Assembly (NCBI GenBank): GCA_964016885.1
Contig: OZ024752.1
Coordinates: forward strand, 43,834,001 to 43,898,000
Origin: Eledone cirrhosa
Taxonomy: Eukaryota
DNA length: 64,000 nucleotides
Direction of reading: 5' to 3'
Position 1 is the first letter of the stretch. Each line of letters opens with the position of its first letter. Shown here piece by piece: positions 20,353-57,900 of this stretch. The translations under genes were made by a program, and so were the position numbers. A model generated the notes under the pieces. That model saw only the letters and a program-made list of their open reading frames with translations. It was not told the DNA's origin and searched no databases.

Positions 20353-20381
20353 CCAAATATATAGGACCAATATATATATAT

Positions 20382-20800
20382 TCTAGGGCAGGTAAAATTC
20401 CCGAGATCCATGGACGAGTTCTCTCCAGTGGTCTCTGTCCCTCATTATCGCTGCCATGTCCTGCATCTCCAACAGACCAGTGTCTGTCCTTAGGGCATCA
20501 ACATATGTTAACCTTGGTCTTCCTCTTCCAGTGTGTCCAAGTAGGGGCTCCCACAGGAGCACTGAGTGCAATGTCAACTCTGGATGTCGGTGAGCATGTC
20601 CAGCTAACCTCAGTCTCCTCTGTGTCACTTTTGAGCTGACTTTTGGGAGGCTTCCATACAGCTCTGAGTTTTTCATCCTCAGTGTATACTGATTAATGTT
20701 CAGAGCCATCCTCAGCATTCTCGTGAAGCACCCATCCACCATTTGAATGAGTTTCTTGGTCAGTGTCCAGGTCTCAGACCTGTACAGCAGCACAGACTCC
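20382..20800 (-). mobile_element. 3' fragment of a second RTE-like LINE family
   Basis: ESVLLYRSETW...RRLRLAGH...GRGRPRLTY; near-identical copy at 32216-32536. Confidence 0.85.
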
Positions 20801-27442: not shown

Positions 27443-27660
27443 TTATGAAGGGGTAGCATTTAGAATTTCTACTTCATCTACAAGTCGATCATTGCTGTCT
27501 GTTTCTACAAGTCCAATTCTTTGAACAACAGTCATTCCAGTGCTGACACGACCAAAGATGCTGTGTTTCCCATCTAGCCATTGGGTTGGTGCTAGGGTTA
27601 TGAAAAACTGGCTTCCATTAGAGTCAGGTCCACTGTTGGCCATGGATAAAATACCAGCAC
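27443..27660 (-). CDS. PPIL1: PPIL1 exon 4 (last coding)
   Basis: [20 protein letters not shown]...NATPS*. Confidence 0.96.
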
Positions 27661-29487
27661 CTAAAAACCAAAACACAATCTCTATAAGTACATAAACTAT
27701 TGTTTTAAAGACAATAAATAAATATTTAATTTCTTGACAAAACTTTAACAAAGCTATACAGTTATTATATAGTGAATTGACAGTATCGGTAGAGCGTCAG
27801 ACAACAGGAAGCATAGAGTTACGACCCTTTACCATCTGAGTTATAATCCCGCTACGGTTAGCTTTCCCTTTCATCCTTAGGGCGTTAATAAAATAAAGTA
27901 CCAGTAATGCACTGGAGTTGATTTATTCAACTTTCCCCTCCCCCCAAATGGTTGGCCTTGTGCCTAAATCAGAAATCATTATTATATAGATTTGGATATA
28001 TATAACATGTTGGATATATATAACATGTTGGATATATATAACATGCTAGATATATATAACATGTTGGATATATATAACATGTTGGATATATATAACATGT
28101 TGGATATATATAACATGTTGGATATATATAACATGTTGGATATATATAACATGCTAGATATATATAACATGTTGGCTATGTATAACATGTTGAATATATA
28201 TAACATGCTAGATATGTATAACATGTTGGATATATATAACATGCTAGATATATATAACATGTTGGATATATATAACATGCTATATATATATATAAATATA
28301 GGAGTTATATATAACATGCTAGATACATGGAGTTATATTATATATAAGATGTTAGATACATCAAAATTGTGTTTATCAATATATTTACCTGTGTGTTTTA
28401 ACTCATCTGACAGCTCATCTTCAAAATGTTTGCCATAAATCGACGCTCCACCTCGACCTTTCAACAAAAACACGAATAAATAAAACATAGAAAATAAAAA
28501 AATTATAAAAGTTAAAGTAGCGCTGTGTGGTTTCAGATTCGATGCCATTGCTAAATAGGGAAGTAGGTGAATGTCTTCTGAGTGAAATTTGGAAGACAGA
28601 AGCTGAGTAGAAGCCTGTCAAATGGACTGATCCTGTAATTCAGAGGTCTAGGCTTGTCACACATGCTGAATCTCCGACATTTGAAACATAACTTGATCCA
28701 TTAGTTTTATTCCTCTGTAGTTATCCTTTCTAGAGTATCACCTTTTCCCTTGTAATAATTAATGATTATGTTGTCGCACCTGTCATTAGGTATGGTCCCG
28801 TCCAGTATTATCTCATAGATTACACAGGTGACTAGTTCAACTCCTACTCCCCAGATGCTTTCAGAACCATAATAAAAACAAAAGTAATAATCTTACCAGT
28901 TCCAGTGGGGTCACCTCCTTGAATCATAAAATCCTTTATGACTCGGTGAAATTTTGTGCCATTGTAGTAACCCCGTCTAGAAAGTTCTGCAAAATTACGG
29001 CAAGTTTTTGGTGCCTGCTTCCAATACAGTTCAAATGTAATGCTGCCCATTCTTCAAAAATATATAAATGAAATACCATTTAGTAAATTTAATTGAACTA
29101 AATTTAAAAATAAAACATCTTTAATTTATTTTCGTTAACGATGTATAGATAGTAGTTTAACCCTTTTGTGATCATACTTTTCATGAAACACACTGCCAAA
29201 TCATTTTCAAATAATTTAGAAATTATTCAAACGTGGGGGGATTTAGTAATAAGCTGGTGTTTGAAGAATAATTTAAAGTTATAAAGAAACAAGGCCATAG
29301 GCGCTAAACTGTACATATTCGTTTGAAGTTACTTCCATTTTGTTTGCAATTTTATATACCAAAAGCGAAATATACCCAAATTTCAACACATATAAAGTAA
29401 AAATATAAAAATTTATGTGGCTCACGTTGTTTCAAAAGTAACTAAGGAAGGTTGCCAGGAGCTGGACGGCATGCCATAGGAAGACAT
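27443..29487 (-). CDS. PPIL1: Peptidyl-prolyl cis-trans isomerase-like 1 (spliceosomal cyclophilin), 4 exons, 167 aa
   Basis: Exons 29487-29426, 29051-28897, 28457-28389, 27660-27443 are all GT-AG and in frame (504 nt). Protein [81 protein letters not shown]...[33 protein letters not shown] closely resembles human PPIL1 (recalled). Confidence 0.96.
27785..27978 (+). mobile_element. tRNA-derived SINE in PPIL1 intron 3
   Basis: Decayed tRNA-like head followed by the TTTCATCCTTAGGGCGTTAATAAAATAAAGTACCAG core. Confidence 0.65.
27992..28330. repeat. 18-bp minisatellite in PPIL1 intron 3
   Basis: Unit tggatatatataacatgt; produces the MLDIYN pseudo-ORF. Confidence 0.95.
28389..28457 (-). CDS. PPIL1: PPIL1 exon 3
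   Basis: [23 protein letters not shown]; acceptor AG, donor GTAAA. Confidence 0.95.
28897..29051 (-). CDS. PPIL1: PPIL1 exon 2
   Basis: [10 protein letters not shown]...[11 protein letters not shown]; acceptor AG, donor GTAAG. Confidence 0.96.
29426..29487 (-). CDS. PPIL1: PPIL1 coding exon 1
   Basis: ATG at 29487; [20 protein letters not shown]; donor GTGAG. Confidence 0.88.
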
Positions 29488-30916
29488 GTTGGATAATTTA
29501 GTTTTACACCGGTAACCGCTACATAAACTATTATTCAAATCATTAATTCGTATATTTTCTTTTCAAATATATTTTTGTATCCAGATAGTTTCTAATGAAA
29601 GAAAAAATTTCGAATGTTTCATAATTCCCATAATTGGAATAATGGATTTGATGATCGAATAATACAACATCGTATTATTGATTAGCTCCACCGCTCCCCC
29701 AAAACGATACATCTAGTACGTTCAACATTTATTTGATTTCCGAAAAGATTATTATAAATGACTTTAAAGTGATTTAAAAGTTCAACATCAATTTTTCTAA
29801 ATAGATAATACGAAACTAAAGAAGCTAACTATATTTCTGTACGATCGAGAAGAATATTGGTTTAAGATCAGTTAAAATATTTTTTTTAAAGAAATGTTCA
29901 TAATAGATCCGGAAGGAAGAACACATCTCGCCCGATTCATTATATTCATTACATATGTACAAGTTAGAGTTAGGGTCCGAATTTACCAATTAAAGAATTA
30001 AAATATAATTTTTTTTTAAATTATTGCTAATATTCTTTCCCATCCTGCTGTCATGATAAAGTGTCCCAATGTATTCTATAAAAGGGTTGGTGTTAGGAAG
30101 GGTTTCCAGCCGTAGAAAACGTCATATGAGAGTGATTTTCTGACCTCTTCTTGTGACAACATATCCAACAGTTGTTTGTAAAGGTGAAATATTATAGTTT
30201 ATGAAGGCTAATATGACTTTATAGCTTATGTGGGCTAATATAACTTTATAGCTTATGTGGGCTAATATAACTTTATAGCTTAAGAGGGCTAATATGACTT
30301 AAATATTATTGTTTATGAAGGCTAATATGATTTAAATATTATAGTTTATGAGGGCTTCTCTTCTTGTGACAACCCATCCATCTGTTGTTTAGAAGCTTAT
30401 GTGTGTTAATTATATTTGTTTAAATCTGTTAAAGAATCATAATGAATAAAAGAAGAAATGGGAGTGTAAATAGCAGTAGTAGTGGTGGTGATGTTGTTGG
30501 TGGCGGTGGTGTTGGTGTTGGTGATGTTGTTGGTGGTGGTGGTGTTGGTGATTGTGGTGTTTGATTTTTTCCAGTGAATAGGAAGGATGTCGTGTAAACT
30601 AAAAGTGAGTTGTCTGCTGTAGCGTCATCCTTGACCTCTGACACAAAGAACTATTTATTCTAACATTCTGGACACTACTACTACTACTACTCCCTAAACT
30701 ATTTCCTTACTATATTTATCTTCTTCTAATTCCTCATTTGTCACCATCTATCCCTCTACAACCTCTGCAGTACTTGCCCAACCTTATATCCTCCACTAAC
30801 GTCATTTAAACCAAACATTTCTCCCCCGCCTTCATTCATTTTTCAAGAAAGGAAAGAAAAAAGAACAACAAAACACAAAACAAGTATATATACACACAAA
30901 TACACATATATAGCTA

Positions 30917-31065: not shown

Positions 31066-31090
31066 ATGGATGCCAAAAAAATACATCCAG
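31066..31090 (+). CDS. Candidate first coding exon of the membrane-protein gene
   Basis: ATG GAT GCC AAA AAA ATA CAT CCA G|GTGAGT; strong donor, phase 1, in-frame stop upstream. Confidence 0.4.
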
Positions 31091-34000
31091 GTGAGTCACA
31101 TTTTCTTTTAACACCATCATTACCATATATTTAATGATTTTCAATTTAACATATCGTCATCATCATAGTTATTTTACATCCACTTTTTCCTGCTTGCAAG
31201 GGTGGGACAGGTCCTCTTCAACACAGCATCCCTCCATTTGTCACAGTCCTTCGTCATCTCCTCTGTGAACTTCAGCAATCTGAGGTCAGCTCTCATCACC
31301 TCTGCCCATGTTTTCCGTGGTTTTCTTCTACTTCGTCTTCCTTCCACTGGGATTACCTGGTAATCATCTTCCATGTGCATCACATGTCCATACCAATGTA
31401 GTCTTCTCTCCTGTACACTACAATTTATTCCTCTTATACACAATTTCTCTCTCAACTCGTCCAGGCTTGGTCACTCATGCACATTGACATTGCACATCCA
31501 TCAGAGCATGCTTGCTTCCTTTCTCCCCAACCTTTGCATATCCTCTGCAGTTGCTGCCCATCTTTCACTACTACGCAGCACCATTATAATAAAATAATAA
31601 ATAATTTGGAGGGAATTAGTAATACACTAACCTTTCTCATTATTAAGCTAGTGGTTTGGAACAATTTAACAAAGGTTCTCACATAAAAATTATGTTGAAA
31701 GATTTTTTTAGATAAATATGCATGCTTCAGAATAAATTTATATGATAGGATGAAAGACAGTTTCAGGTGTGTTAGTATCTAAAGGTTTTAATGTGTCTGT
31801 TACTATTAATAAAGAAATTTAGGATGGTGGATTGATAGAATGGGATAAAATGTGGTTTATGTTTTGGTTCTTTACATTCTAAGTTCAATTCCAGCCAAGG
31901 TCAACAGGTACTTGTAAGATTGGTAAAATAATCCAGAAGTTTCAGTTCATATAATATGATATAATGAAATTATTGTGTAAAGTGCTCAGGTGCACTACAA
32001 CTCGTCAAAGGTGCATGTATAGTACATAGAATAATACACAAATGTCACGGAAGTGAATAGTGTATGAGTCATGATATACATGTGTGTATGTGTATGGAGG
32101 GGGAACATTAGCTGTAGTGTTGGCGGATCTCGGGAAGCATGGAGGCCTTAAAGGATGCAGTGTCTCGACAGCTAACAACCGATGCAGGTAGTTTGTTCCA
32201 TGCTTTAGCAACTCTATCTAAGGCGGGTAAAATTCCCGAGATCCATGGACGAGTTCTCTCCAGCGGTCTCTGTCCCTCATTATCACTGCCATGTCCTGCA
32301 TCTCCAACAGACCAGTGTCTGTCCTTAGGGCATCAACATATGTTAACCTTGGTCTTCCTCTTCTAGTGTGTCCATGTAGGGGCTCCCAAAGGATTACTGA
32401 GTGCAATGTCAACTCTGGATGTCGGTGAGCATGTCCAGCTAACCTCAGTCTCTTCTGTGTCACTTTTGAGCTGACTTTTGGGATGCTCCCATACAGCTCT
32501 GAGTTTTTCATCCTCAGTGTATACTGATTAATGTTCAGCAACTCTGAGCGTGAAAAAATGTTTCCGAAAGTCATGGGAACTGTACTGTTTTCTGATTTTG
32601 TGGGCATGCCCACGCGTGTTAGACACATGGAAATCAAAAAGGTACTCAGGGTTGTTGTTGGCAAGATGGTTAACAATTTTGTGGGTGTTTACCAAGTCAG
32701 TTGCCAGGCGTCGGAGCTTCAATGTATCCATGCCCAGGGAAGCAAGGTGCTCAGAGTATGGTAGATGCCTGATGGAGGGTATTTGCTTGGTTGCACATCT
32801 CTGAACAGTCTCCAGGCGGTCAATGTTCTGAGCAAGATAGGGGTTCCAGACTGGAGATGCAAATTCTAAGTGTGGCCGCACCATAGCCATGTACAGCCTT
32901 AAATAGATAGCTGGAGAGCGGCTGACAAAGGTCTTGCTGAGTGATGCTAAGACACCCTCGGCCCTCTTGACAATTTTAGAGACGTGCTTTGTCCAATGCA
33001 AATCGCTGCTGACCGTAATGCCCAGGTCACGTTCACAAGAAGACTTCTTGATATTAGTGCTGTGGAGGGAGTATGTGGATGCTGGGTTTTTACTCCCAAA
33101 ATGCATGGTGGTGCACTTGTCCACAGCTAGCTTGAGTTGCCAGTCTGAGATCCATTGTTGCATTGTGTCCAGGTCAGACAGCAAGCAAGATCTATAGTGT
33201 TCAGGATCTGTCCTTTTTATCTCAGGTACAGCTTGATGTCATCTGCGTACTTTAGTACCGTGGAATTCTTTAAGTTGGCATCTATGTCATTAATATATGC
33301 CACAAACAAAAGGGGGCCAAGAATAGATCCCTGTGGTACACCAGATGACATCTTATATGGTGAGGAATGCTGTCCCAGAACCGTGACTACCTCTCTTCGA
33401 CTGAGAATGAAGGACTTCAACCAGTTAAAAAGATCATCCTTCACACCCATTGCAGAGAGTTTTGCCATAAGCCTTTTGTGTGGCACAGAATTGAAAGCTT
33501 TCGCAAAGTCAAGGTAAACAAAATCCACCCATGAGCCGCCATCAGTGATCCGGGTGATGTCTTCAAGAAGCTCGATAAGTTGATCACAGCAGCTGGAGTT
33601 GGGGATAAATCCAAATTGTGAGGGCCGGATAAGACTGTGAGAATTCCAGAAGTTGCAAAGTTTACAACCTGTGAATGTGTGTGTATGTTTGAGTGCCTAT
33701 ATATGTGTGTGTGAGTGCATATATGTGTGTGTGTGTGTGTATGTTTGAGTACATATGTGTGTGTGTTCGTTTCTAATGCCCCCAGCATTAGAAACGAAGC
33801 CACAATCCGTTCGGTATGAGCAAGACATGGTCATCTGACCTTGCTTGTCTCACAACTAGACAACTTGTCTAACCCATGCTAGCGTGGAAAAATAGACATT
33901 AAATAGTGATGATGATGATGATGATCAATTTTTGTGCCTACATAAAGAAAAACTTTGTGAAAATGTATGAAGTACTGATGAGAATGGTTTTAAGGCAGCC

Positions 34001-37000
34001 AGGAATTTGGGGCTATTTAATTGTTGGCATTTCTAAGGGAAGAATTGACCCCAGTACTAGACTGGTACTTTATTATCGACCTTGAGTGGATGAAAAGCAA
34101 AGTTGACCTTGGTGGGATTTGGACGTTCTAACAACTCTACCAATTCATTGCCTTCAATTCCAATAAAAGATATAAACCTGTAAATAATGAAACTATTCTT
34201 CACCAATTTACAATATAAAATATGTAAATAACATATTCTCTCAAGGATATAAAGTTAGAATATACAGGATCCAAACATGTGTGAAACACTTCAGCTAGTT
34301 TGCTGTTTCAACAACAGTCTACTGTATTACAAGATATGTTAACTCTTCAAATAAATATAAACAATACATTTTATATATGTGTTCCACCAGGAATCAAAAC
34401 AGCTCGTCTCAAATGCTTATCAATTGGTCCTTCTCAGCCAATAGACAACTGCACAACCATGGTCATTAAATATTGAAATAACTACACAACCTTCCTATTT
34501 CCTGTCACTCATTCATTGTGAGATTTAAAGCTTTTATGGAAATAGTAAAACACTCCTTATTTGAATAAGTAGCATTTTATAAATATTAGGAGTATATTTA
34601 TTATTTTACAGACACAGAAATGGCCAAGAAACTTACTTTGCAACTATATGGTATGGGGTTCTATCCCACTGCATGACAGCTTGGTCAAGTGTCTTCTACT
34701 GTAATCTCAGGCCAATTAATGTCTCTTCAGTGAATTTGGTAGATGAAGACTCAAAAGAAGCCCACCACATATATCTATCTTTCTATATACTACTAAAACT
34801 CTGTGATTGTGTGCCTGTCTGTAATTCAATACAGCCAAAATGGGAATATACTTTGAAAGGAAGTTGCCCCTCAAATGGGAATACAAATGGAATAAAACAA
34901 GATTCACGTAAATCGGAGCATGGGTTCCTGAGATACGGGTTTTTTCCAGGAAAATGAAAGAGAGAGAAAGAAAGCTGGTGGTGTTGTTGAATGAAATTAT
35001 AACAGGTGACAAAGAATCGAATACAGCATTACTGTATCTAGCTAACATTTGGTGACTGAATATTAAAAGTCATGTGTCATATAACTTGTGTTAGGACGGG
35101 ATGTGTGTAGCGAATATTTCCTGCTAAATAGGAACAGTTTCTAAATTTGTGTGTATGTATATATATATGAAAAGATTCAGGACCCCAACGGCTGAGCTCC
35201 GACCGTTTTGACAGCTAGATCCGAACTAAGCCTGTAGAAGCTATTTCTATATTAAATTTGTTATATATATACACACACACGCACACATACATATATATAT
35301 ATGTGTATGTATGTATATACATATAATAATAAATGAACGATTTATTATGCCTTCATTACATTTATTGAGTAGTGACATCCGTTTTGCTATTGATCAGCTG
35401 AAGGTTCGATCTGTATCAATCTGGCCCCCGACTTTGGTATCAAAGACATGTCGGACCTCTGCTGTGGTAATGAGGTTTGACGAGCTTTTGATTCCAGAGT
35501 CGGACCAAATCAATACAGACCGAACCTTGAGCAGATCAATAGCGAAACAGACATCACTACTCAATAAACGTAATGAAGGCATAACAAATGGTCCTTTTAT
35601 TATTATATTTACATTCTGCTTAGTTCTACACCTGAAAAGTAGACATCGAGTGCTCACTGAGTTGAACCTACAGTAGCTGCACGTTACACTCTCAACATAT
35701 ATCTATCTTGTGTTATAGTTTTTAACTAGCAATAACCTCGGATAACCTTCATTGGCTATCATACCTCCTATGTGCAAAGCTATGTATATATGTAAGAGAA
35801 TGTTGGGGTTAGGAAGATCAATTAAATTGACCCCAGTAGTTGATTATTTCATTGACCTTTGAAAGGCAGAGCTGTCTTTGACAATATTTCAACTCTGAAT
35901 GTAAAGAACTGTCATTAAGTACAATATTTTACTGATTCTAAAAAAGTGGAGCAATTATTAAAAATGTTTTTCAATGGAAATACAATTTAAGTAAAAGAGG
36001 AATGTTAGTCATAATAGGATCTGGGTCGGGGCCTACAGTAAGGAGTGAGAAGACAATTACATATTTGTACATTATCTATGTACTATACATGCACCTTTGA
36101 TGAGTTGTAGTGCATTTAAGTACTGTACACAATAATTTCATTGTTATTATCATATACTGCGCTACAACTCATTTAAACTAAGCAATTAATTAGGAATTTA
36201 AAAATTTTTATAATTATTATAATTAATTTCAGTTGTGTATTTATCATACTAAATAGCAAATTACGAGCTTAATTATGTCATATATTACAAAACTGAGTGT
36301 ACGCCTATGTTAGTATATAGTTGCATTTCATGTGTAAATACATATCTCACATATATATGGGTGTGTCTATATATATATATATATAGATATATATAATTGA
36401 ATATATGAGAAGGATGAACACCGATACAAGTATACATGTGTTCCAATTGCAAATGACCATATATTCAATTATATTACATGGCTCAGAAAGATGCCCTTCT
36501 TTGAGCTATTTAATTGTAAAAGACTATTTTGAGTTTCTAACTCAATCTATGATATATATATATATGTATATTTATTAAAATAACAGATTAAAGTTTAAGC
36601 AAAGAATCGTTGCTTTCACCCTTAAAAGGATCTTCTGAAACTACATTTATCCTTATCGATTTTAGTCAATTTTTTCCCTAAAGTGAATTGGACCTAAAAA
36701 TCTACATACAGCTTATCTAGAGCTGCAATTTATGCATCTTTAAATATAGAATATATCCTAAAGGCTTTACAGTGTTGATATTGTGGGGCCACATATACAT
36801 ACACACTAAATATCTTTTCCTTTCTAAATTTTCAGATTTTTGCCGTGTGCATAAGTGCAGTAGTAATAATATATCCTTCTTCGACCCGTGTAACTGTAGA
36901 CACTATTTCCAGTGCTCTTCAAATGGAACAGAAAACAGAAAATGTAATCTTACCACAGCATTTGTCTACAACAACAATATTGTAACATCTGTCAAGTGTG

Positions 37001-39273
37001 TCACATTGATGCCACTGCAAATAATGTCATGTAATGCACAAAATCCCTGGTCAGTGTGCAATATTGATCGCCCATGTGAGTATATCAATATCTTATCTAT
37101 CTATTTGATGACAGGTAAGAAGAATTGGCGTATTGTTGGGGGCAGGGAGGGAGAAGGAGGCAGCTGCATCCCCCTTCCTCCCAAAGAAATTTGTTGTCAG
37201 AAAATTATGAATGTCTACATTTCCCAAAATGATAGGAGCATCAATATGGTGGAGAGAATGAAGCAACTGTCACTATTTTGGGGTGGATAATAAATTGTTA
37301 TAGAGCAGCAGTACACGTCAATTAGTAATGAAGGGAGATATGAGTTTCAAATATCTATCTACCTGTATGTGTATATATACACATAGAAATAGTGGACAGC
37401 TTCCGTTACCTGGGTGACAAAATCAGCAGTGGGGGAGGGTGTTCTGAAAGTACAGTAGCTAGAGTCAGAACTGGATGGAAAAAGTTCAGAGAGCTTATAC
37501 CACTATTAGCCACTAAAGGGTTCTCCCTAAAAATGAAAGGCAGGTTATATGATGCCTGCATACGAACAGCAATGCTGCATGGCAGTGAGACCTGGGCATT
37601 GTGTGCAGAGGATATACGCAGACTAGAGAGGAACGAAGCTTGCATGCTCCGCTGGATGTGTAATAGTAATATACGTGAACGGCTAAGCATAAACGAACTA
37701 AGGAAAAAAATTAGAAATAAGAGGGATCAGATGTTGTTTACTCGAGAGAAGGCTACGTTGGTATGGTCACGTGATGCGCATGAAAGACGACAGCTGTATA
37801 ACAAAGTGCAGGGCAATAAAGATAGACGGTAGCCACGGAGTAGGCAGACCCAGAAAAACCTGGGACATGATAAATTCCGACCTCACACACTTACACCTCT
37901 CCAAGACAATGTCACTGGACCGAGATCTTTGGCGGTACTCAGTAATAGAGAAGACCCGCCTTACCTAAATACAAAGTAAAACCTACTACAGTCAGTAGGC
38001 ATCTCTAACAAAACACCCCCCCGTCCCACCACCCCCACCCCATCCACACCGCCCCTTTCAATGTAAAGTTATGTTGGTGTCACAACATCCAGGCCGAAAC
38101 AAATGAGATCGTGTAGGTGTCACGACAAAAAACACACAGTCCACGCTGTAATGTGGCTGTGTAGGTAACACGGTAAAAACCTCCCAGCCCCACACTGTAA
38201 ATGTGGTTGGTGTTAGGAAGGGCATCCAGCTGTAGAAAACCCGCCAGACAGTCCTATGCGAGCAAGACAATCACTCTTGCCTCAAGTGGGAAAACCCCCG
38301 TCCAAACCCATGCAAGCGTGGAAAACGGACGTTAAACGTTGATGATGAGAGAGAAACACATACATATATATATCAATAATATTAATAAATGGAATGTTGA
38401 GTGCTTCTAATCTGTTATAAACTAAATTTGTTGATTAATCAAATATCTATCTACCTGTGTGTATATATATATATAGAGAGAGAGAGAAACACATACATAC
38501 ACACACACACATATATATCAATAATATTAATAAATGGAAGCTATATTGAGTGCTTCTAAGCTGTTATAAACTAAATTTGTTGAATAATCAACAAATTAAA
38601 TAACTCATTGCTTATATATATCATCATCATCTTTGTTTAACGTCCATCTTCCACGCTAGCAAGGTTGGTCGGGTGACCGTGTCTTGCTCATATAGGACTG
38701 TCTGGCAGGTTTTCTACGGCTGGATGCCCTTCCTAACACCAACCACATTTACAGTGTGGACTGGGAAATTTTTTACCATGTTACCTACACTTTTTCCATC
38801 CCGTTCTGACTCTAGCTACTGTACTTTCAGAAGACCCTCCACAACAGCTGATTTCGTCACCCAGGTAACGGAAAGTGTCCACTATTTCTATAGAACCATC
38901 TGGGCAATAGAAAGGAGCTAGTATCCTATGGGCACTTGCTACTTATTGCACCTGAGCATCAGCCAAATATAAAGTCTACGTTCTTAGATAGTTTACCTGT
39001 GATCCCACTACATCTTTTATGTACCCATAGTGTGCCTTTGGGACATAAAATGGAATTTCTGCCTACTCCTTTCCTACACACTGAGCATGGCTATTTCCCT
39101 GAGGGCACCTATTTTCCTTTCTACAAACTAGAACTTTAGTCTTAGACAAGTTAAATTTAAGGCCTTTTGATTCTAGGCCATGCTTCCATGTTTGGAATTT
39201 CTTCTCTTCTCTAGTTCAGCCATAGTTTCAGCTATGAGAGTTAGATCATCTGAGTAGAGAGAGAGAGAGAGAG

Positions 39274-39306
<33 letters not shown>

Positions 39307-41015
39307 GAGAGAGAGACACATACATATATATAGAGAGAGACACACATATATATATATAGAGAGAGAGACATACATACATACATATATAGAGAGAGACCAA
39401 CCATATATATATATAGAGAGACACACACACATACATATATATATATAGAGAGAGAGAGACATACAGACATATATATATATATATAGAGAGAGAGACATAC
39501 AGACATATATATATATATAGAAAGAGACATACATACATGCATGCATATGCACACAAACTCACATATATAAACATTTTTCATGTTATGTATTTCAGTTAAC
39601 ATAACAAAATGCAGGAAAATCTGGCCAGAAGATATGGATGACTGGAAACCTCGGGAAATTGAAAGTTTCCTTCGTAAATTACAAAGGAAAAACCAAAGTG
39701 AAGATAAAGCCCCTATTTTATCTCCCTCTATAATGATACCTCTTCTTGTTGGTATCGTCCTATTCCTGCTCTTTATACTCTCTGTCACCCTTTTAATGTT
39801 AATTAAAAAAAAAAGGAAAAATCGGTTAGTCCCTTCTTTATTTGTATTTATATTTCTTGTTTTTTCATCATCAGCACTACCACCACCATATGGGGGTAGG
39901 GATAAGTGGAGGTGGGGTGGAACATCAGTAATTTTTGTAGGTTGTCTCTTGATTTTAAAAAAAACCCCAGAATTAGTCGTTTAGTTTACACAGTGAGACC
40001 CCAACCCATCCTAATTATTTTATAACATATGGGATTTCTATAAAAATCTTCTGTTTTTGTCATGTATAATGTTTTTTAATGTCTAAAGAAAATTGTCTCA
40101 GAAATGCTACCACTTAAAATAAAATTTCACCAGAGATATCATAATCATTATCACCGTTTAACGTCCACTTTTTCATGCTTGTATGGGTTAGACGGGTTGT
40201 CCTGTTGTGAGCAATGCCAGGTCGGGTGACCATGACTTAGTTTTTACAGCTGGATGCTCTTTATATTTAAGAAATTAACAGATTCTAGATTTGAGAGTAT
40301 ATATGGTATTTTATCTGTTACAGGTCGAAACCCAGTAATGATGGTGCAGCTGAAAGTCCTGACAAAGGTGTTATGATGGTTGAACCATCAGTTCAATATG
40401 AAGAAATTAAAGACCTGTGTCCAGTATGTCTTTATTTTCACTTTATTCAATGTTTCCTTTAACCCTTTAGTTATCAACCCAGCCATTACCAGCTCTGGTT
40501 CTATGAAATAAAATCACCCATTTTAAACGTTTACAATTTAAATTAAAATCTTCCAACATAATTTTATATAAGAACCTTACATTAAGTTACTATCTCAGTA
40601 ATGAAATAATTAATAATTTTAGTAAATCCCTCATAATTCTTCATTAGTTAATTGAAATAGAGTGTATGTCACTGAAAGGGTTAATTATAACACAATTTAA
40701 CAGATCAATAATTATTACTTCTTGGTATATCATCATTCTTTTCCCTTTTATTTACAGAGAAGAAAATGTTCCATTGATATGTTAAAGCGTCCTTTGCCTG
40801 ACTTTCCGACGGAACACGATTCTAAAGAAGTCCGCTACCAGAGGATTCTCTCCCTTTACAAACTCCCAGGAAAGAAAAATGATGTTAACATTGAAAGAGA
40901 TTCTGTAGCCAAGAATATAAACAGTGTTTACATTCCTGAAGAAGGGCAATATAATGTTTTACAAACTGAGAATGGCACTGAACCTAGAAATTCTCAAGAT
41001 TCAAGTAATGTTTAA
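31066..41015 (+). CDS. Uncharacterised single-pass membrane protein with Cys-rich peritrophin-A/CBM14-like ectodomain and Tyr-motif cytoplasmic tail (about 296 aa)
   Basis: Exons 36836-37075, 39596-39824, 40324-40423 and 40758-41015 join in frame with canonical sites (phases 1,1,2,0). Candidate 5' exons 31066-31090 and 34612-34650 are also phase-compatible. AATAAA at 41282. Confidence 0.75.
31150..31585 (-). mobile_element. Decayed RTE LINE 3' fragment
   Basis: REKLCIRGINCSVQERRLHWYGHV...RKPRKTW. Confidence 0.8.
31963..33660 (-). mobile_element. CR1/L2-group LINE, 5'-truncated RT region with nested insertion
   Basis: YLDFAKAFNSVPH, SGVPQGSILGPLLF, KYADDIKLY, VRPHLEFASPVWNPY; a second copy of its 3' end lies on + at about 36070-36150. 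Confidence 0.9.
32216..32536 (-). mobile_element. RTE-like fragment nested in the CR1/L2 element, 9-bp TSD
   Basis: AGCAACTCT at 32207-32215 and 32537-32545; the insert matches 20382-20703. Confidence 0.88.
34612..34650 (+). CDS. Candidate 39-nt exon of the membrane-protein gene
   Basis: TTATTTTACAG| ... |GTATGG, phase 1-1; encodes (D)TEMAKKLTLQLY. Confidence 0.55.
35321..35608. repeat. Imperfect fold-back element, arms about 138 bp
   Basis: Arms about 80% complementary with a loop of about 12 nt; similar ORFs on both strands result. Confidence 0.9.
36836..37075 (+). CDS. Cys-rich chitin-binding type-2-like exon
   Basis: TTTTCAG|...|GTGAGT, 240 nt, phase 1-1; FCRVHKC...FFDPCNCRHYFQCSSNGTENRKCNLTTAF...KC...SC...VC, with NxS/T sequons. 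Confidence 0.85.
37385..38348 (+). mobile_element. RTE LINE 3' fragment (same family as 18092-20352)
   Basis: DSFRYLGDKISSGGGCSES...MLHGSETW...GRPRKTW; ends in a (GAT)n tail. Confidence 0.93.
38620..39254 (-). mobile_element. Internally deleted RTE LINE fragment
   Basis: 3' UTR joined directly to RT/zinc-finger pieces (SDDLTLIAETMAELEK). Confidence 0.88.
39596..39824 (+). CDS. Transmembrane exon
   Basis: TTTCAG|...|GTTAGT; IMIPLLVGIVLFLLFILSVTLLMLI followed by KKKRKNR (positive-inside). Confidence 0.88.
40324..40423 (+). CDS. Cytoplasmic exon containing VQYEEI
   Basis: TTACAG|...|GTATGT; SKPSNDGAAESPDKGVMMVEPSVQYEEIKDLCP. Confidence 0.85.
40459..40684. mobile_element. TTAA-flanked piggyBac-type MITE in the last intron
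   Basis: TTAA-CCCTTTAG at one end and CTGAAAGGG-TTAA at the other. Confidence 0.6.
40758..41015 (+). CDS. Last coding exon (RPLPDFP, VRYQRI, YNVL, C-terminal SNV)
   Basis: TTTACAG| phase 0; open to TAA at 41013-41015. Confidence 0.85.
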   Translation, partial: RRKCSIDMLKRPLPDFPTEHDSKEVRYQRILSLYKLPGKKNDVNIERDSVAKNINSVYIPEEGQYNVLQTENGTEPRNSQDSSNV

Positions 41016-42046
41016 CATCAGATTGTGGCAATGAATGTCTTCAAGTTCAATTATCTCTCTTGCCTTTACTGAAGTGCCAAATAATATCTGTGAGGGTGTT
41101 TCATTATTCCAGTGCCTTAACCTCACAATAACCCACAACAATGCCTCCTCTTGGCTTACAGAAAATATTATAAGAAAATATTATACTCCAGGGCCCCTCT
41201 CTTCTAGTGTGGAATTCAGTGTGCTTTCTGTCTTTTTCTCTCATTAATTTCTTTCTGTCAATCTATTGATTATTAATTATCAATAAACAAACAAAAAAGC
41301 TGTGATTAACTAAAATGTCTATTTACAAGGCTAACCTTAAGTTTTTGCAACTAAACCTAAAGTAAATATAATTATATCTTTAACACAAAATATCATCCCC
41401 CCCCCCCCCCTCACCACTGCAAGAAAATAAATTACTTTGCTTCTCTGGCCCACTTAATTTCTAATCACAGCTAGAACACTCACTCATTCAGAGGATCCCG
41501 TTTGAGGGTGGAAGAAGAAATTGTTTGCTTAAACTTTTAATCTGTGCTAATAATAAATATTTATCCGAACTTTCCTGAAGAAGGACTTCTGTCTGAAATG
41601 TTGAAACTCCCTCCACTTCCACCAAGCATGAAACTAATATAAACGTGTAAAATTGCCTCCTGTGTTTTGTCTGTTTCATTTATTAACTATATATATATAT
41701 ATATGTGTGTGTGTGTATATATATATGTGTATATATATGTATATATATATGTGTGTATATATATATAATTAAAAGTTTAACAAGGTTCAATGAATTCATC
41801 ATTGAATAAAGTTTCACAATAGATTATAAGCACTCTACTGCAAGGTATATAAATATTGAGTTTTGTCATACCTAATCACTGCCACGACTAAATTATAACC
41901 ATCAATATAGTCAAGCATCAACTTATTTTATCTGATGAAGACGTACTGTTGAAATAGCTCAGTATCTCTGAAATATGTATAATAAAATATATTTGATCAC
42001 ATGAATGTCTATATTTATTAATATTTTGAAGTAATATATATATATA

Positions 42047-43853: not shown

Positions 43854-45629
43854 TTAGTCTTCTGTATGAATAGCTACATGTTTAGCTAGTTGGATTTTTT
43901 GAAAAAATGATTTACTGCAGATAGCACATTCATATGGTTTCTCTCCTGTATGAAGACGTTTGTGTCTAGTTAAACATTTCGCCTCAGAGAAAGATTTACC
44001 ACAGATCTCACAATTAAATGGCTTCTCTCCTGAATGAGTACGTTTGTGTCTAGTTAAATATTTTCCGACAGTGAATGATTTACCACAAATATCACAATGA
44101 TATGGCTTCTCTCCTGTATGATTGCGTGTGTGTTTGGTTAACATACCATTTTCAGAAAATGATTTACCACAGATATCACATTGATATGGCTTATCTTCTA
44201 TATGAACGTATTTGTGTCTGGTTAAGTAATTTCTTTCAGAGAAGGATTTTCCACAGATCTCACAATGATATGGCTTCTCTCCTGAATGAGTACGTTTGTG
44301 TCTAGTTAAATGTTTTCCATCAGTAAATGATTTACCACAGATATCACAATGATATGGCTTCTCTCCTGTATGAATACGTTCATGTTTAGTTAAATATTTT
44401 CCATCAGAGAATGCTTTACCACAGATATTACAAATATATGGTTTCTCTCCTGTATGATTCTGTTTATGTTTGGTTAAGATACCATTTTCAGGAAATGATT
44501 TACCACAGATATCACAATGATATGGCTTATCTTCTATATGAATGTATTTGTGCTTAGTTAAGTGTCTTCTTTCAGAGAATGATTTACCACAGATATCGCA
44601 ATGATATGGTTTCTCTCCTGTATGGATACGTTTGTGCCTAATTAAGTGACTACTTACAGAAAATGATTTATCACAGATATCACAGTGATATGGTTTCTCT
44701 CCTGTATGAAAACGTTTGTGTTTAGTTAACACACCATTTTCAGAGAATGATTTACCACATATATCACAGAGATATGGTTTCTCTCCTGTATGTATACGTT
44801 TGTGCCTAATTAAGTGACTACTTCCAGAGAAAGATTTACCACAGATATCACAACAATATGTCTTCTCTACTGTATGAATACGTTTGTGTATAGTTAAATG
44901 TTTTCTTTTAGAGAATGATTCACTACAGATAACACAGTGATATAATTTCTCTACTGTACAAATACATTTATGTTGAGTCAAGCCACTACTCTGAGAAAAA
45001 AATTTACCACAGATATCACAGTGAAATGGCTTCTCTCCTGTGTGAATGCGTTCATGTCTAGTTAAGACACTTCCTTCAGAGAAAGATTTACCACAGATAT
45101 CACAGTGATATGGTTTCTCTCCAGTATGAATACGTATATGTTTAGTTAAGTCACTACTTCCAGAGAATGATTTACCACAGATATCACAGTGATATGGTTT
45201 CTCACCTGTATGGATCCGTTTGTGTTTAGTTAAGGTACATACTCTGGAGAATGATTCACCACATATGTTGCAGTGGTATGGCTTCTCTCCTGTATGAATA
45301 CGTATATGTATGGTTAAATGATCATTTCGAGAGAACGATTTACCACAGAAACCACAGTAATACGGCTTCTCTCCTGTATGGAGAAAGGTGTGAGTAGTTA
45401 GACTACTTTTTTGAGTGAATGCTTTACCACAGATAACACAGTCGTACGGTTTATCTCCTGTATGAATACGTTCATGAATAATTAGGCTACTCTTATTAGG
45501 GAGTGATTTATCACAGATATCACATTGATATGAAGTCTTTCCAGTCTCTTCCACAATATCTACAGGAAAATCAATACTTTTCAACTCTATTTCATGTTGA
45601 ACCTCATTCTCGAATAATTCATTTTCCAT
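43854..45629 (-). CDS. C2H2 zinc-finger protein, 20 tandem fingers, single coding exon (591 aa)
   Basis: Twenty CxxC-x12-HxxxH units (finger 7 ends in C) with TGEKPY-type linkers after a 33-aa acidic N-terminus. Candidate acceptor TTTTTCAG at 45831; AATAAA on minus at 43196-43201. Confidence 0.96.
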
Positions 45630-46761
45630 TGTTTATTTTCTCTCACCAGTGAGGAGGTTACAATCTCAGTTCAGAGGAAATATTCACACTAATCCTATCA
45701 TATATAATATATATATACATATATATATATATATATGTGTGTGTATGTATCCCAGGTTCAATATCTGTTCTGTATGAAATCTTTGAGGTATCTCAGGTAA
45801 AAGATTGTTATGCCAATGTCACCTGATATTCTGAAAAAGTAAAGAAATCATATAAGATATACACAATACGTAATAAGTAGAGACTCAACAGAGGAAATTT
45901 TACTACATTTCAGCATTGATAAACTGTAAATATAAATATTTACTTGAATAATTCAACTTATCTCCTCAACCTCATCAATTCCACATTCCATGTTGGTATA
46001 GTCTTAGACTAGTCAGATGTCCTGCCACTTTACAGAAACTGTACCTTATGTATTTTATTGTCATCATATTAAAAATAGTCAGATTTTTTAATTTTCTTCA
46101 ATCACTTCATATATATTGCATTATACATAACAGAATCTTTTTATTTATTTTAAAATACAATTACCACTTCATTTTGTAAATTGTACATCAACTAATTTCC
46201 TACCGTCGTATGTTTTTATTACCTTTTTAGATTTTCCATCTGAAAACTTCACTTCAGTAAGTGTTTTATTATTCTTTTTGGCAATATTAAGACATGACCC
46301 CCCCACAAATATAACAATTTCAGTTCAGTTTTGATGGAACCCTTAAATAGGAACATACCTCTATCAGTCAGGCGCAAGAATTATTAATACCGAAAAGGAT
46401 GTAATATGAAACCAAAAACAATAAAAAAAGATTGAATATAATATTGAAAAAAGATACGATAAATGGTACACAAAAATAACATTAGTGTAATGAGTTAATG
46501 GTTATTGTGACAGTCACGTACGAATAACATGTCTCATGTAATTAAACCTATTTAATGTTGCTTTTAATGACAGGACTGGGACATTTATTATTAAAACAGG
46601 CGAGAAGCCAACAAAAGCTAATTAAATATGTTAGAGCTGTAAATAAAACTATCTTTAATTTGTTTTAAAAATATTATTAATGTAACTCCTTTATATGTAA
46701 TTATTGTATGAAGAGAAAATGATAAAGTATTAAAGTAATATTTATATTTATATATATATAT

Positions 46762-51951: not shown

Positions 51952-54900
51952 CTGTAGAAAAAAAAAGAAAAGAAAAGGGGAAAATAATAAAAATCACAAC
52001 TTTTTAAGCTTCTAATTTCATCTTTAGAAATGACATTTAAAAACTATTCACAGACCAGACTATAGTTTGATTGCTAATCACCATCGACACAGAATTAAAG
52101 GAAATTAACCTCATCAAGTGCAGTGAGCCGGAATAAATCCTGAAGCATTTTAAAAATCCAACGCCATAATGACTGTCAATTTGTTGTCATTGTTTTATGT
52201 CAGGCAAAATAGAATTCGAAGAATTATGTACTTTATCATCACACACCAATGACTGTAATATGGTTCCTCAACTCAGGATAATAAATTTCTTTAGAATGAT
52301 ATCATCATCATTTCATTTTACGTCCGCTTGTCCCTGCTTGCAAGGGTGGGACGGGAACTGATATATATATATATATATATATTATAGAGCAATATGTACA
52401 TCAATAAGTAGTTTCTTCATAATACACCAACCAATAACAAACACATGAGATTACAGGATAAACAACTAAAATATACTTACTCCCTTTTCGCTTACATCAG
52501 TCACAGGGATCTTCATGTTCCATAATTCTTTTGCTGAAGGTGGCACCGCATACAAGGGCATTTGTGGTGGTGGTGGTGGTGGTGGGTTGAAAGAAGCAAT
52601 TCCATTACTAAAACGGTGCATCAACATATGTGGATTGCCCTGTAATATTTCAGAAGTTTCACAGAGTTCAGTAAACTAAATGGCTGTTAAAATAGTTGTA
52701 GTTGCTAATACATTGAGACTAGTTAGTATGAATTTTTGGCAACATTAAATATCTATACATACTAACAGAAAAACCACCCTTCGGGTGGTTTTCTGCTAGC
52801 ATGTTTAGTGTGTATATTGATATTATACGCAGGTATATATACATGTAGATATGATACATCAAATAAAATTGTAATTGACAATATATAACACATAGAAATT
52901 GAACGAAGACTGTCTTATGTAATCAGTGACGTAATCCATGATACATTAAAAAAGACAATATTACATATAAAGTGCATTAGGAGAAAATTAGTGACGTAAA
53001 ATTAGTATGTTTATTTAAGCGATCGCCACCGGAAGTGTTGACATTTCAGAAATTTTAAAGAAGTGATTCTTTAAATAATAAAATATATTTAATGAACAGC
53101 CACGAAATTTAGTAGATAAATTATGTAATATTCATTCATTATTTATTCAAAGTAATCCAACTTATTTTACAAACGGGATAAAAAAAAATAAACCGTACAC
53201 AATCTCGCAGACCTTCCTTTATTATAGTTTAAATATACACATATTTATTTATGGTCATACACAGACAAAAATGCAACAGAAGGTTTCACGGTCCAATTAT
53301 GACCCTCTCCCCAGGTTGTCAGACATCTAGAATACCAATAGCATGTAAGTATGGCATTAAGACAATGGACAAGTCATCATCATCAAGTAGTTTATATTAT
53401 CAGTTTTGAATCTGTTTTCTCAGATGCAGTGGTCTTTACATAAAAGAACTGATGTGAAACTATTTAAATAGTTTTTATTGTAACCAACACAAGTGATGTT
53501 GCCATTACTGTGTTGAGACTTTATCCACTTTGTATCAATATTGAACAAAGACTTATGATGTCTACATTCACCCAAACTCAGAAAATAAAGAGAAATAAAG
53601 AGAAATCCTGTTCTTTGTCATTAGATTAAAGAAATAATTATTAACCAAATATACTGCAAATAATCAGCTGTGAGAAATCTATAAATTATAAGAAAATAAA
53701 AATCATTCTTTATAAACGTCTTACATGATAAGACTGTCCGACTTGATCTGGACGCTTGCCTTCCAGTAGATTGCTTCGAATAGTTGCATTTTCCAACCGA
53801 GACGGCACTCTCCCGTCATTAGGTCCAGTGACAGTAGGAGTCATTATTCCAGTAGAACCAGTAGATGATGTCATTACTGGGGTAGACATTGCAGCTGAAG
53901 CCATGATGGGAGAACTACTTGCAGGCCACTCCGAATTCAATTCTGAAGCAAAAACACAATATAGAAAATTTACTCAAATTACCAACAAAAAAACACTCCT
54001 AAAAAATCCTATGATTGGATCTAACAATGTTTACTAGTTTAGAAATTAGTAATTTAATAAAATATGATTAAAATAATGAGAGGAGATTTCATACCTGAAC
54101 TAAGTGCCCATATCATTGGGTTGAAGTCAGTTTCCATATTAATTCCTTGAGGTTTCTTCATCAGACGTTCTCCTCCAATAGGTTTCAAAAGCTTACGTTC
54201 ATCCATAATATTTTTCACCTGTTCTAAGGGTTGTGGTGGAGGAGTGGTACTCAAAGGCAAAGGAGACGATGGACCTTGAACCCCTTCAGAGAAGAAGAAA
54301 ATAAAAAAAATGGATGCAATGATTAAACATTTGAAAATAAAAAGCTGAAACCCTAATTACTTTTGAGCATCAGATGGTAATAATACTTTTCACAATATCC
54401 ATTCTATAATATACAAACACGGTAACACTAAATGTAAATATGGTGTGAGGGATTGGAGATTGCATGACTGGCTGACAACAGAATCAAGTGAACGTAAGGT
54501 AGAGAAGGACTCTTAGTCTTGTCAAGAACCTGACAAACTGTTGATGCCACAATAGAATGCACCCTGTACACTCTTAAAAATGAGTGGCATTAGGAAGGGC
54601 CTCTGTGGAAGCCATTCCAAAATATGGGATGTAGGAGCAAATGTGATTATCTGACCAAGTCCTGTCTTATTCCAACTCAAGCCAGAAACAGGACATTTAT
54701 CGATGATGTTTACTTTCATAGCTGCTTGCATCTAAAGGATTAAAAATATTTAACATTTTTTTATATTGTAATTTAAATTTAAAAACTCAAAAAATGATTT
54801 ACCTTTTGTACGTAGTGCTATAGATGGTGTACTGTTAGGTCGCACTGGGGGATGCATTGGTGAATATGGACGCTGCACTGGTTGGTTAGGATTCATCATG

Positions 54901-57900
54901 TTAGTATTAGGCTGGTTACTAAATTGGGCGAGTATATTGTAACTGGGTTGCATATCTGGCATAGGTGGAGGAGGCGGTGGGGCTACTGGAAGGTAGTTAG
55001 CCTGTGGGTGCATACTGCTGTAGTTAGGGCTTACAAAAGCATGAGTTGCATACATTGCAGTCTGAATGTTGCCAGAGTTTAAGTTACCAACCCCCGTACG
55101 ACCAAGAAATTGTGCAGGCAAATTCCCCTGAGGTGTAGAAACACTTTTGAAATCAGGTGCAAGAGGATTTAAAATGCTATCTATTTTTGGAAGAGTCATA
55201 GGTTGATTAGGAATGGTATATTCCTCCTTCTGACTAGACATAACAGGAGGCAGCATCCGGGGATGGGCTGCTTCCAAAGTTACAACTGTTCTTATGGTCC
55301 TTGGAGATAATCCAGGTTGACCTGAATTATTAGACCGGGGTGACAATGAGCAACCTACTGAGTTTAACATAACATCTGAACTGTTGTGTAAAGACAGTCC
55401 AAAATGGTTTTTATAATTGGGCATTTTAACTTGTTCTAGATCTGATACTAAAGTGTGCTGGGGAGAATTTGTCCTATGTCCGTTTGGTTTATAGCCAGGA
55501 GCTTTAGCCTGCAAAGCAGCGTCTATCTTTGGTTCAGCAGGTAATGGTTTAGGGGAACTTCGACCAACCTGGGACGGCAACCCAGAATTCATTTGTACTC
55601 CTGCAGCAACACTGGCAAAATTCATTCTTTCTCCACAGTGGTCATCTTTTTTCCCCATCACCTGCTCAGCAACATGACTAAACAAGTTGTTAAAAGGAGA
55701 GTAGTCACATGGTAATGAGACAGGAGGAATGGATGCTGCTTCAGATGAAAGCTGGGACTGAGGCAAAACATTGCCACCACCTGTTCGCATTACTAAGTTA
55801 GAATTTACTATTGAAGGAGCAGTTGGAGGGCCAACTGGATTAGGTGCTATACCCCCGCCACCACTACTGCCACCTCCGCCACCACAAAGTATATCCGAAG
55901 ACTTCATATTAGTAGGAGGTGGTCTATAATTAACTTTAATTTGAGGAGAAGAGTTAGAGGAATGGGTTTCTACCTTTACAGCTGAGGTAGCAGTAGAAGT
56001 TATTAGCTTAATCCCTGATGGAGCACTGCTATAGGTGACAGTTGCATGGGTAGTTGTTACCGCAGTAGGCACAGTTGATGTCCGCTTATCACTCGGGAAC
56101 AACTGCCTAACAACTTTTGCCTCCGGAGCAGATGAAGTGGCAACGGATGCTGTAGTGGGCGGAGACCGAATCGATACCTGATGGTGGGGTTGGGATTGTT
56201 GCTGCTGAGTGATATTATTTGACGAAGCAGACTTCTGAGAAGGCAGTGGATTGTGCTGAGGTGAAGTAAGGGTTGAAGTGGACTGAGCATTTGACCAGAC
56301 TTGACTCTGCACAACAGTACTCCCTGAACTTTGAACCAATGTTGGTCGTGGTGCAGTATTACCAACAGTGGAAGTCACTGAATTAGATGGCTGCTGTTTA
56401 GAGTTTGCAGTTCTTTGAACCATCTTATTATTCGAATTGTAGCTTGACAATGAAGGACAGGTAGAAACATAAGTCCCGCTAGCAATAGATGTGTTACTGA
56501 CATGGTTAGTATTGCAACTATCACTATTATTATTGCTAGTTGAAGCCACATTGGAATTGGTCCATTCAGATGGTAACTGAGTCTGCAAGGGGACATGATT
56601 TGACTGCTGGTGTGACTGAGTGTGCTGTTGCTGGTTCTGCCGGGATTGCTTATTTTTGGGCAGTATCTCAGCAATTTCTTTATCGGGATCAGAAACTAGG
56701 ACATTTATTAACAGATGAGCTTGTCTGGTTGCTTCAGCAGATCCCCTGAAATGAAGAAAATTAAGATTTCATTAAAATACAAGTAGTTGGCAAGATAAGA
56801 AATAGCCTAAAGTTCAATACTGTAAACTTTTCAGAAACTACATGACACCCACAAGGTGGTAACTCTCAGGAGAGCTGGATAGCAGAAGGTCTTAAGTGTT
56901 TTGGACCTTAACATTGAAAAAACACTTTAGTAGACCATTACTGTATCAATGGAACGGTCGGTTTCTAATAAATCAGAGAAATCTAAGAGGAATCCAACAC
57001 TTGTGATGAAGAACAATAATATACAACATATCATCATCATCATCATTTAACGTCCATTTTTGTTGCTAGCAATGGTTGGATGGGGCTTCACAGACATTTA
57101 AGAATGGTTTTCCAAAGAGCAACAGAAGAGAACTACAGTGAAGTTACTCCATACATTAGTAGAGAGGATACACATCTCATATAGTCTCAGGACTAGAACG
57201 GTTTCATTCATTTGAAATCCCGTCTCTATGAAATATGATTATTTCACCATCCAATTTTTGCAACCTTGACAAAAACTGACAGAGAGAGAGAGAAAAGAGA
57301 AGAGGTGGTGGTGGGGTTTAATTGTATATTATGTTTCTGGTATTAATGATAGAAGTAGATCAATAACTTACTTGATAGTAATCAATCTGTCGCCAGATCC
57401 CTTCTGTTTTTCAACTTCTATATGAGCTCCCGATGCATCTCTTATGGCATTAATATTGGCGCCACCTCGGCCTATTACTCGACTGATCGCATTCGCAGAA
57501 ACAATGATTTTTTTAGATCTGTAACCAGAATGGATTTTTTTAATATTAAAACAGTAAAAAAAAAAAAAAAATCAAACCTCCAAAACAGCAAAATATAAAA
57601 TATTTTTGATATAATTTTTAGATTTTCATTTAAACAACAAATTATTACTTACACAAGGAATAAATACTAAAACTTACTTCCTTACAACTTCTTTCCAACC
57701 ATCTTCTTTTCGTTGACCTCTTTTAGGACTCATGTTTACATTGTGAGCCTTCATTAAATTGACAGACCGATCACTTGAATTAGTATTTTTATCTAATAAA
57801 GGTCCAAAATGCTCATGACACTCCCTGTGGTGAAAATAATATTTGATGATTAGTTCTGGCATTGAATAACACGGTTACAGAATAGGATATTTAGATAATT

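Follow-up and report, generated by a model that had tools for sequence, protein, structure and literature searches.

Putative Src-family docking sites in the conserved tail of an octopod single-pass membrane protein

A spliced gene for a single-pass membrane protein

The window analysed here, a 64,000 nucleotide (nt) stretch of the Eledone cirrhosa genome (contig OZ024752.1, positions 43,834,001 to 43,898,000), holds on its forward strand a gene whose predicted product combines a cysteine-rich, CBM14-like (peritrophin-A-like) ectodomain, one membrane segment and a tail in which short tyrosine- and proline-based motifs cluster. An earlier note, made from the sequence alone, had singled out this tail as a meeting point of Src SH2 and SH3 ligands with inhibitory-receptor-like and PDZ-binding sites. 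On the evidence below that note is partly supported: the motifs that it described are present, a Src-docking role for them is plausible and the sites concerned are conserved, and the PDZ claim was wrong. The gene model comprises five coding pieces that join in frame to a product of 283 amino acids (aa):

31066-31090 (+): candidate first coding exon piece, with ATG, then KIHP, up to a GTGAGT donor (sequence reading)
36836-37075 (+): cysteine-rich ectodomain exon, with a degenerate CBM14/peritrophin-A-like module and a P-W-x-x-C extension (donor at 37076 in the spliced contig)
39596-39824 (+): exon with a CRxIWP stalk, a single transmembrane helix and a basic stop-transfer stretch (hydropathy, spliced contig)
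40324-40423 (+): 100-nt exon carrying VQYEEI (its length accounts for all but one base of the 101-nt contig gap)
40758-41015 (+): last coding exon, with RKCSIDML, RPLPDFP, VRYQRI, VYIPEE, GQYNVL, SSNV and the stop (homology, spliced contig)
41016-41407 (+): 3′ untranslated region, reaching at least 41407 (spliced-contig coverage)

A 1,320-nt contig (record 12, run X4) joins 36833-37075, 39596-39823 and 40758-41407, and its unlisted 101 nt correspond to base 39824 plus the 100-nt exon. Run X4, whose library type is unrecorded, was taken as RNA because this contig is spliced. A GT-AG intron (40424-40757) parts the YEEI exon from the RPLPDFP exon, and AATAAA signals lie at 41282 and 41426. For the ectodomain exon, a donor at 37115 was dropped in favour of 37076 after orthologue alignment and inspection of the spliced contig. 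The piece at 31066-31090 joins in frame and agrees with the I/V-H-P of the orthologues; it gave no tblastn match and is absent from the pieces listed for the spliced contig. Since the 98 extra 5′ letters that this contig carries beyond its listed pieces were not placed, homology is the sole basis for the start codon. Further upstream, a short stretch at 30580-30604 (+; AG, ATG, GTGAGT donor) may be another exon, which would extend the reading frame by a few hydrophilic residues.

Searching with the last exon retrieved two uncharacterised proteins, P0001 (Octopus bimaculoides) and P0002 (O. sinensis), at E~1e-22, and further orthologues were found in O. vulgaris (P0003) and Argonauta hians (P0004). 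Identity to the window protein amounts to 44-50% (P0001, P0002, P0004); by region it is 47% for the ectodomain, 20-36% for the membrane segment and 46-54% for the tail.

Hydropathy analysis located one hydrophobic segment at aa ~134-158 (Kyte-Doolittle 19-residue peak of 3.07 at aa 140-158), with one Lys/Arg before it and seven after it. Ten cysteines and five N-glycan sequons lie on its N-terminal side, and the N-terminus itself is not hydrophobic: in the window protein and the four orthologues, its 9-residue hydropathy peak reaches just 0.10-0.63, as judged from hydropathy and not with a signal-peptide predictor. A single segment with 4-7 Lys/Arg behind it recurred in 9/9 proteins compared. 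As the lone segment, the basic residues behind it and the non-hydrophobic N-terminus are the same in the four orthologues, this layout suggests a membrane protein inserted N-out and lacking a cleaved signal peptide.

The ectodomain, ~130 cysteine-rich residues that are predicted to fold, resembles CBM14 domains by several weak but concordant signs. Pfam CBM_14 (PF01607) matched the ectodomain exon at E=0.0034 and 17.9 bits, short of the gathering cut-off of 22.1; the orthologues P0002 and P0001 scored 17.5 and 13.7 bits and P0004 gave no match. In a fold search with the AlphaFold2 (AF2) model of the Argonauta ectodomain (predicted confidence, pLDDT, 79.6), 5 of 48,161 chains reached Z>=2, every one of them of CBM14 type, that is, from the fold family of Der p 23, EHEP, Avr4 and the carbohydrate-binding module of chitotriosidase. 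These matches are weak (Z 2.2-2.6, root-mean-square deviation 3.3-4.0, 46-62 residues aligned), as is the best Foldseek match (E=0.5). A profile of the ectodomain searched against sequences of the Protein Data Bank (PDB) ranked EHEP first (E=0.0024), followed by a chitin-binding beak protein (E=0.016). A CBM14 origin of the ectodomain is thus weakly indicated, from sequence profiles and a predicted model. The fold does not name the ligand, because Der p 23 and Aplysia EHEP, the two top fold matches, fail to bind chitin according to PMC10619976. Unlike the CBM14 proteins named above, which are secreted or serve as enzyme appendages, the window protein would be membrane-anchored, with ten cysteines and a tyrosine-motif tail.

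Other searches with the ectodomain or the whole protein added little. Comparing the ectodomain exon alone with longer proteins yielded 17 candidates, none at E<=0.01; Pfam returned no EMI or EGF match in the window protein; the full-length model, searched by fold, matched nothing but generic helices along its membrane segment; and the ESM Atlas held no usable match for P0002 or for the bivalve relative P0008 introduced below. Designed Pizza proteins, retrieved from the PDB sequences with P0002, were rejected as repeat-inflated. An N-x-T sequon directly following a cysteine (ectodomain exon, aa 45-48) does not vary among the four octopod sequences compared, and the bivalve domains have C-P/S at this position; a glycan here could alter or block a chitin-binding face.

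Tail motifs and their conservation among octopods

Once spliced, the tail reads in a single frame and carries the following motifs; the five named in the earlier note are where it had placed them, and VYIPEE, with a fourth conserved tyrosine, is one that it had not listed:

40391-40408 (+; Tyr codon 40397): VQYEEI, predicted Src-family SH2 ligand, ~32 residues from the membrane (sequence)
40788-40808 (+): RPLPDFP, class I SH3 ligand pattern (6/7 positions invariant)
40830-40847 (+): VRYQRI, ITIM-pattern site (sequence; ITIM, immunoreceptor tyrosine-based inhibitory motif)
40926-40943 (+): VYIPEE (sequence)
40944-40961 (+): GQYNVL (sequence)
41001-41012 (+): SSNV C-terminus, then TAA; PDZ-like by pattern alone (0/4 positions invariant)

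The spacing of about 15 residues noted between the SH2 and SH3 ligands likewise stands, with 15 residues separating the YEEI isoleucine from the RPLP arginine. YEEI is a high-affinity sequence for Src-family SH2 domains, and the phage-selected Src SH3 peptide VSL12 makes its contacts through Arg6, Leu8, Pro9, Leu11 and Pro12 (PMC4140816); RPLPDFP aligns with VSL12 at Arg6, Leu8, Pro9 and Pro12, with Phe replacing Leu11. AF2 assigned the tail a pLDDT <50, i.e. predicted disorder, as expected for linear motifs.

How often such motifs arise by chance was estimated from 100,000 shuffles of the 125-aa tail, with patterns chosen after the sequence had been seen. The exact YEEI occurred with P=0.002 (0.021 for the loose Y[DE][DE][ILV]), RxLPxxP with 0.003 (0.12 for the loose [RK]xxPxxP), at least two ITIM patterns with 0.018 and a PDZ end with 0.022; the loose SH2 and SH3 patterns jointly gave P=0.0027. 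Because the patterns were post hoc, and because the PDZ end proved unconserved despite its P of 0.02, conservation is the better test.

That test compared the window protein with P0001, P0002 and P0004, P0003 having been dropped as 95% identical to P0002. YEE[IV], RPLPDxP, VxYQRI and GQYN are kept in 4/4 octopod orthologues. Over the five motifs of the earlier note, 18/29 positions are invariant versus 26/96 in the rest of the tail (Fisher p=7e-4, with positions taken as independent); block permutation gave p=0.023 for the five and 0.007 without the PDZ end. The expectation that the SH2 and SH3 ligands would be more conserved than their flanks was borne out for the pair, which exceeds random tail blocks at p=0.039. 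RPLPDFP occurs in the window protein and the three Octopus species and RPLPDCP in Argonauta, while four of the five tail tyrosines are invariant, and the invariant runs of the tail comprise YEE, RKCSIDML, RPLPD, YQRILS, YIP and EGQYN. The proposed class I PDZ ligand had to be removed: the orthologues end in VPD, VPD, VPD and TTK, and [ST]x[VIL] is found in 0/4, leaving a C-terminus that is not conserved.

Of the ITIM-like sites claimed earlier, one survived. VxYQRI fits the pattern in the window protein and 4/4 orthologues, whereas GQYNVL breaks it through its Gly at -2. The second match in the window tail is VQYEEI itself, and VQYEE[IV] fits in the window protein and the three Octopus species and is lost in Argonauta. 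A hemITAM is defined by three acidic residues followed by xYxxL (PMC11507803); GQYNVL was rejected as such a site as well, since EEGQYNVL is one acidic residue short of the required three, Gly occupying position -2, and the Octopus species have YNIV. Pattern checks of the window tail for ITAM (immunoreceptor tyrosine-based activation motif), ITSM (its switch counterpart), Grb2-type YxN and NPxY found none. Two conserved tyrosines seven residues apart (YIPxEGQYN, 40926-40961, +) match none of the named motifs tried.

The most conserved tail run is none of the motifs in the earlier note but RKCSIDML, with 8/8 positions invariant (p=0.009, picked after the fact). It lies at 40761-40784 (+), between the two Src sites, and could act as a PKA-type site or else extend the SH3 ligand. 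This raises an alternative, which we hold to be very unlikely, in which the tail serves other partners, with RKCSI as a PKA-type site and RILS either as a CaMKII-type site or as a helix formed upon binding, and the Src match is incidental. Both sites are read from the consensus patterns of the respective kinases; [RK][RK]x[ST] fits 4/4 sequences tested, and AF2 places a low-confidence helix across the YQRILS region. Such partners would leave YEE, RPLPD and the four invariant tyrosines unexplained, however, and a serine site lying between YEE and RPLPD could equally regulate Src docking. Given its position between the two Src sites, RKCSI may indeed do so.

Relatives, rival readings and a possible Src-docking receptor

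A profile search of 1.84 billion representative sequences returned eight matches: two of the orthologues, P0005 to P0008, and two that were set aside, namely P0009 (84 aa), matched around the membrane segment alone, and the insect protein P0010, matched via its CBM14 repeats. Decapod, Nautilus and gastropod members were not among the matches, by which their absence is not shown. P0005 (O. vulgaris) and P0006 (O. bimaculoides) share 68% identity, align with the window protein at 25-31% identity over part of their length, and represent a paralogue. In each of the two species its contig has the same length as that of the orthologue, so that both genes probably share a chromosome; the window contains no paralogue. 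Both keep YEEI, lack the proline motif and carry a canonical ITAM (YxxL-x7-YxxL; shuffle P of 0.0035 and 0.0028 for P0005 and P0006), defined as Yxx[LI]-x(6-9)-Yxx[LI] (PMC9546547). In P0005 it occupies residues ~200-214, with a matching stretch in P0006 (2/2 species). YQRI lies 64-67 residues from the membrane, the same distance as the first ITAM tyrosine of the paralogue, and the second ITAM half is missing in the window tail.

The bivalve relatives P0007 (Solemya velum) and P0008 (Potamilus streckersoni) contain three full CBM14 domains and one, respectively, and exceed the PF01607 cut-off at 57.3 and 29.9 bits. Both show the D-P-C-x-C and P-W-x-x-C features, one membrane segment, an NPxY and a YxxI, and the P0008 tail has an ITAM pattern with x9 spacing. 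Hence the ITAM pattern is absent from the window protein, P0001, P0002 and P0004 and present in P0005 and P0006 (x7) and P0008 (x9). A YxxI/V 29-36 residues behind the membrane segment is common to 8/8 family members examined and reads YEE[IV] in all six octopod members (YEEI in the window protein and P0002 to P0006, YEEV in P0001); past this site, tail alignment across the family is unreliable. The ITAMs of P0005 and P0006 suggest that tyrosine-motif signalling is used within the family, and make the paralogue a candidate cephalopod receptor coupled to Syk/Shark.

The second half of the earlier note's proposal is an inhibitory reading, which we regard as quite improbable: Src would phosphorylate VxYQRI, which would recruit SHP2/Corkscrew and dampen the ITAM paralogue as one half of a paired receptor set. 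VxYQRI fits [ILVS]xYxx[ILV] in the window protein and 4/4 orthologues, VQYEE[IV] does so in the window protein and the three Octopus species, and Draper is known in both ITAM and ITIM isoforms (PMC8092387). YQRI sits where the first ITAM tyrosine of the paralogue lies, with the second half missing, and the two genes probably share a chromosome in two species. The pattern is loose, however (0.23 matches expected per shuffled tail), GQYNVL misses it, Argonauta retains one such site only, and the paralogue is not in the window. Moreover, tandem-SH2 phosphatases usually use two sites, and Gln/Arg at +1/+2 is atypical of SHP ligands.

The same tyrosines could instead act mainly as YxxPhi sorting signals read by AP-2 or AP-1, YQRI foremost, with the proline motif binding an endocytic SH3 protein; the protein would then serve uptake or routing of a glycan or other ligand, with Src at most a switch. 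This account is doubtful. In its favour, YQRILS is invariant, YQRI is one conservative change away from the SDYQRL of TGN38 (PMC2133967), three Yxx[ILV] sites are kept in 3/3 orthologues counted, and Src phosphorylation of the YxxL of L1CAM blocks AP-2 binding (PMC2173551). It leaves unexplained the acidic +1/+2 positions (YEE) kept in 6/6 octopod proteins, how closely the proline motif follows the Src-selected VSL12, and the ITAM of the paralogue. Sorting is compatible with Src docking and may be part of it, and both the inhibitory and the trafficking function can coexist with it.

We favour, as somewhat more probable than its negation, that the tail docks and activates a Src-family kinase. 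The octopod protein to which it belongs, encoded by a spliced gene, crossing the membrane once and bearing a CBM14-like ectodomain, is best read as a member of an undescribed molluscan phosphotyrosine-receptor family. The protein would insert N-out without a cleaved signal peptide, and the SH3 domain of the kinase would bind RPLPDxP without any need for phosphorylation. Clustering by an outside ligand could then let the kinase phosphorylate YEEI, and phospho-YEEI would take up the SH2 domain and hold the kinase open, as FAK does with its tandem sites. The kinase might next phosphorylate YQRI, YIP and YNV, whereby further readers would be recruited or YxxPhi-driven uptake switched off. Lacking an ITAM, the window copy probably provides or adjusts kinase activity; the Syk/Shark-type ITAM is on its paralogue. 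All steps beyond sequence, splicing and conservation are inferred.

Several points weigh against this reading. The conservation test amounts to three independent comparisons, all inside octopods, and single motifs were not significant (YEEI p=0.27, RPLPDFP p=0.13). O. bimaculoides has YEEV, Argonauta replaces the Phe of the SH3 site by Cys, and RxLPxxP occurs in 0/4 of the paralogues and bivalve relatives, being confined to the orthologue group. The SH3 core does not explain RKCSIDML, although this is the most conserved run. FAK and p130Cas, another tandem Src docking protein, present the SH3 site before the SH2 site, the reverse of the order in the window tail. Finally, a signal-peptide exon may have been missed, the 5′ end of the gene being outside the model.

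The window protein resembles several known systems in part. Its predicted layout is like that of the vertebrate transmembrane adaptors PAG/Cbp, LAT and LIME, which lack a signal peptide, span the membrane with one helix and carry Src-family SH2/SH3 sites in a disordered, multi-tyrosine tail. These adaptors are nearly devoid of an ectodomain, unlike the window protein with its ~130 cysteine-rich outer residues, and no homology to them was found. In FAK, too, a class I SH3 ligand adjoins an acidic phosphotyrosine SH2 ligand, and FAK disrupts both autoinhibitory contacts of Src, a precedent for tandem SH3 and SH2 docking (PMC4140816). The window sites differ in that they are on a membrane protein without a kinase or substrate-repeat domain and with the SH2 site first, and the two proteins share no homology. 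Draper, MEGF10 and CED-1 are single-pass receptors whose NPxY and ITAM/YxxL tails are read by Src42A, Shark/Syk and Corkscrew (PMC8092387). The bivalve relatives, with NPxY then YxxI, and the Octopus paralogue, with its ITAM, are similar; however, the ectodomain is EMI/EGF in the former and CBM14-like here, and the window tail has neither NPxY nor ITAM.

Among molluscs, oyster CgCLec-HTM and CgCLec-TM1 are carbohydrate-binding membrane receptors that signal from a tyrosine motif to Syk (PMC13027682), albeit with a C-type lectin domain and a hemITAM. Botryllus FcoR and Hydractinia Alr are single-pass families that differ in ITAM/ITIM content (PMC11507803, PMC9546547), and Biomphalaria has the single-pass GRC/PTC2 genes (PMC7494358, the cited portion of which gives no link to the family of the window protein). 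Those families form large and polymorphic clusters, in contrast to the two genes found in octopus, and the ectodomains of FcoR and Alr are of Ig type. The window protein would work like FAK-type Src docking and, at the level of its family, like Draper or the oyster hemITAM lectins. It is in none of the families compared, as it has neither an EMI/EGF, lectin or Ig domain nor an ITAM.

What appears to be new is a family of CBM14-like single-pass proteins with tyrosine-motif tails, spanning bivalves to octopods, with ITAM and non-ITAM copies in Octopus. Receptors with tyrosine motifs are already known from oysters, tunicates, hydroids and flies; their ectodomains are of lectin, Ig or EGF type. 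Searches of the open-access literature found no such receptor with a CBM14-like ectodomain, none in cephalopods and none under these gene identifiers. A more ambitious proposal, which we consider speculative and unlikely to hold in full, is that these are undescribed molluscan receptors, devoid of a signal peptide, that couple a peritrophin-A domain to phosphotyrosine signalling and have split into an octopod pair: an activating copy with YEEI and ITAM, and the window copy with tandem Src sites and one ITIM-like tyrosine, either kinase-supplying or inhibitory. If true, octopods would have a sensor for chitin or glycans that is built on CBM14 and wired as in vertebrate paired immunoreceptors. 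Cephalopods build, eat and meet chitin, and little is known of their receptors for immunity and adhesion; two conserved genes whose tails can be read permit a direct test of Src and Syk/Shark signalling in these animals. Should the ectodomain not bind chitin and the tail serve sorting only, what is left is an orphan membrane protein whose motifs are ordinary.

Neighbouring genes and repeats

Head to head with the receptor gene lies a cyclophilin gene (27443-29472, -; Pro_isomerase match), presumably PPIL1-like, whose start is likely near 29472; a run X4 contig covers 29426-30245, towards the 5′ end of the receptor gene. Tail to tail with it, at 43854-45632 (-), is a C2H2 zinc-finger gene consisting of a single open reading frame with 18 finger matches. 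Exons of an ankyrin-repeat gene, which we take to be MASK/ANKRD17-like, extend over 53710-61391 (-), with Ank matches and long low-complexity stretches. High-copy repeat fragments with reverse-transcriptase-like translations, presumably LINE-like, are located at 19038-20382, 32528-33696, 37344-37968 and 38781-39215; several of them fall inside introns of the receptor gene, and contig depth over the fragments examined was very high.

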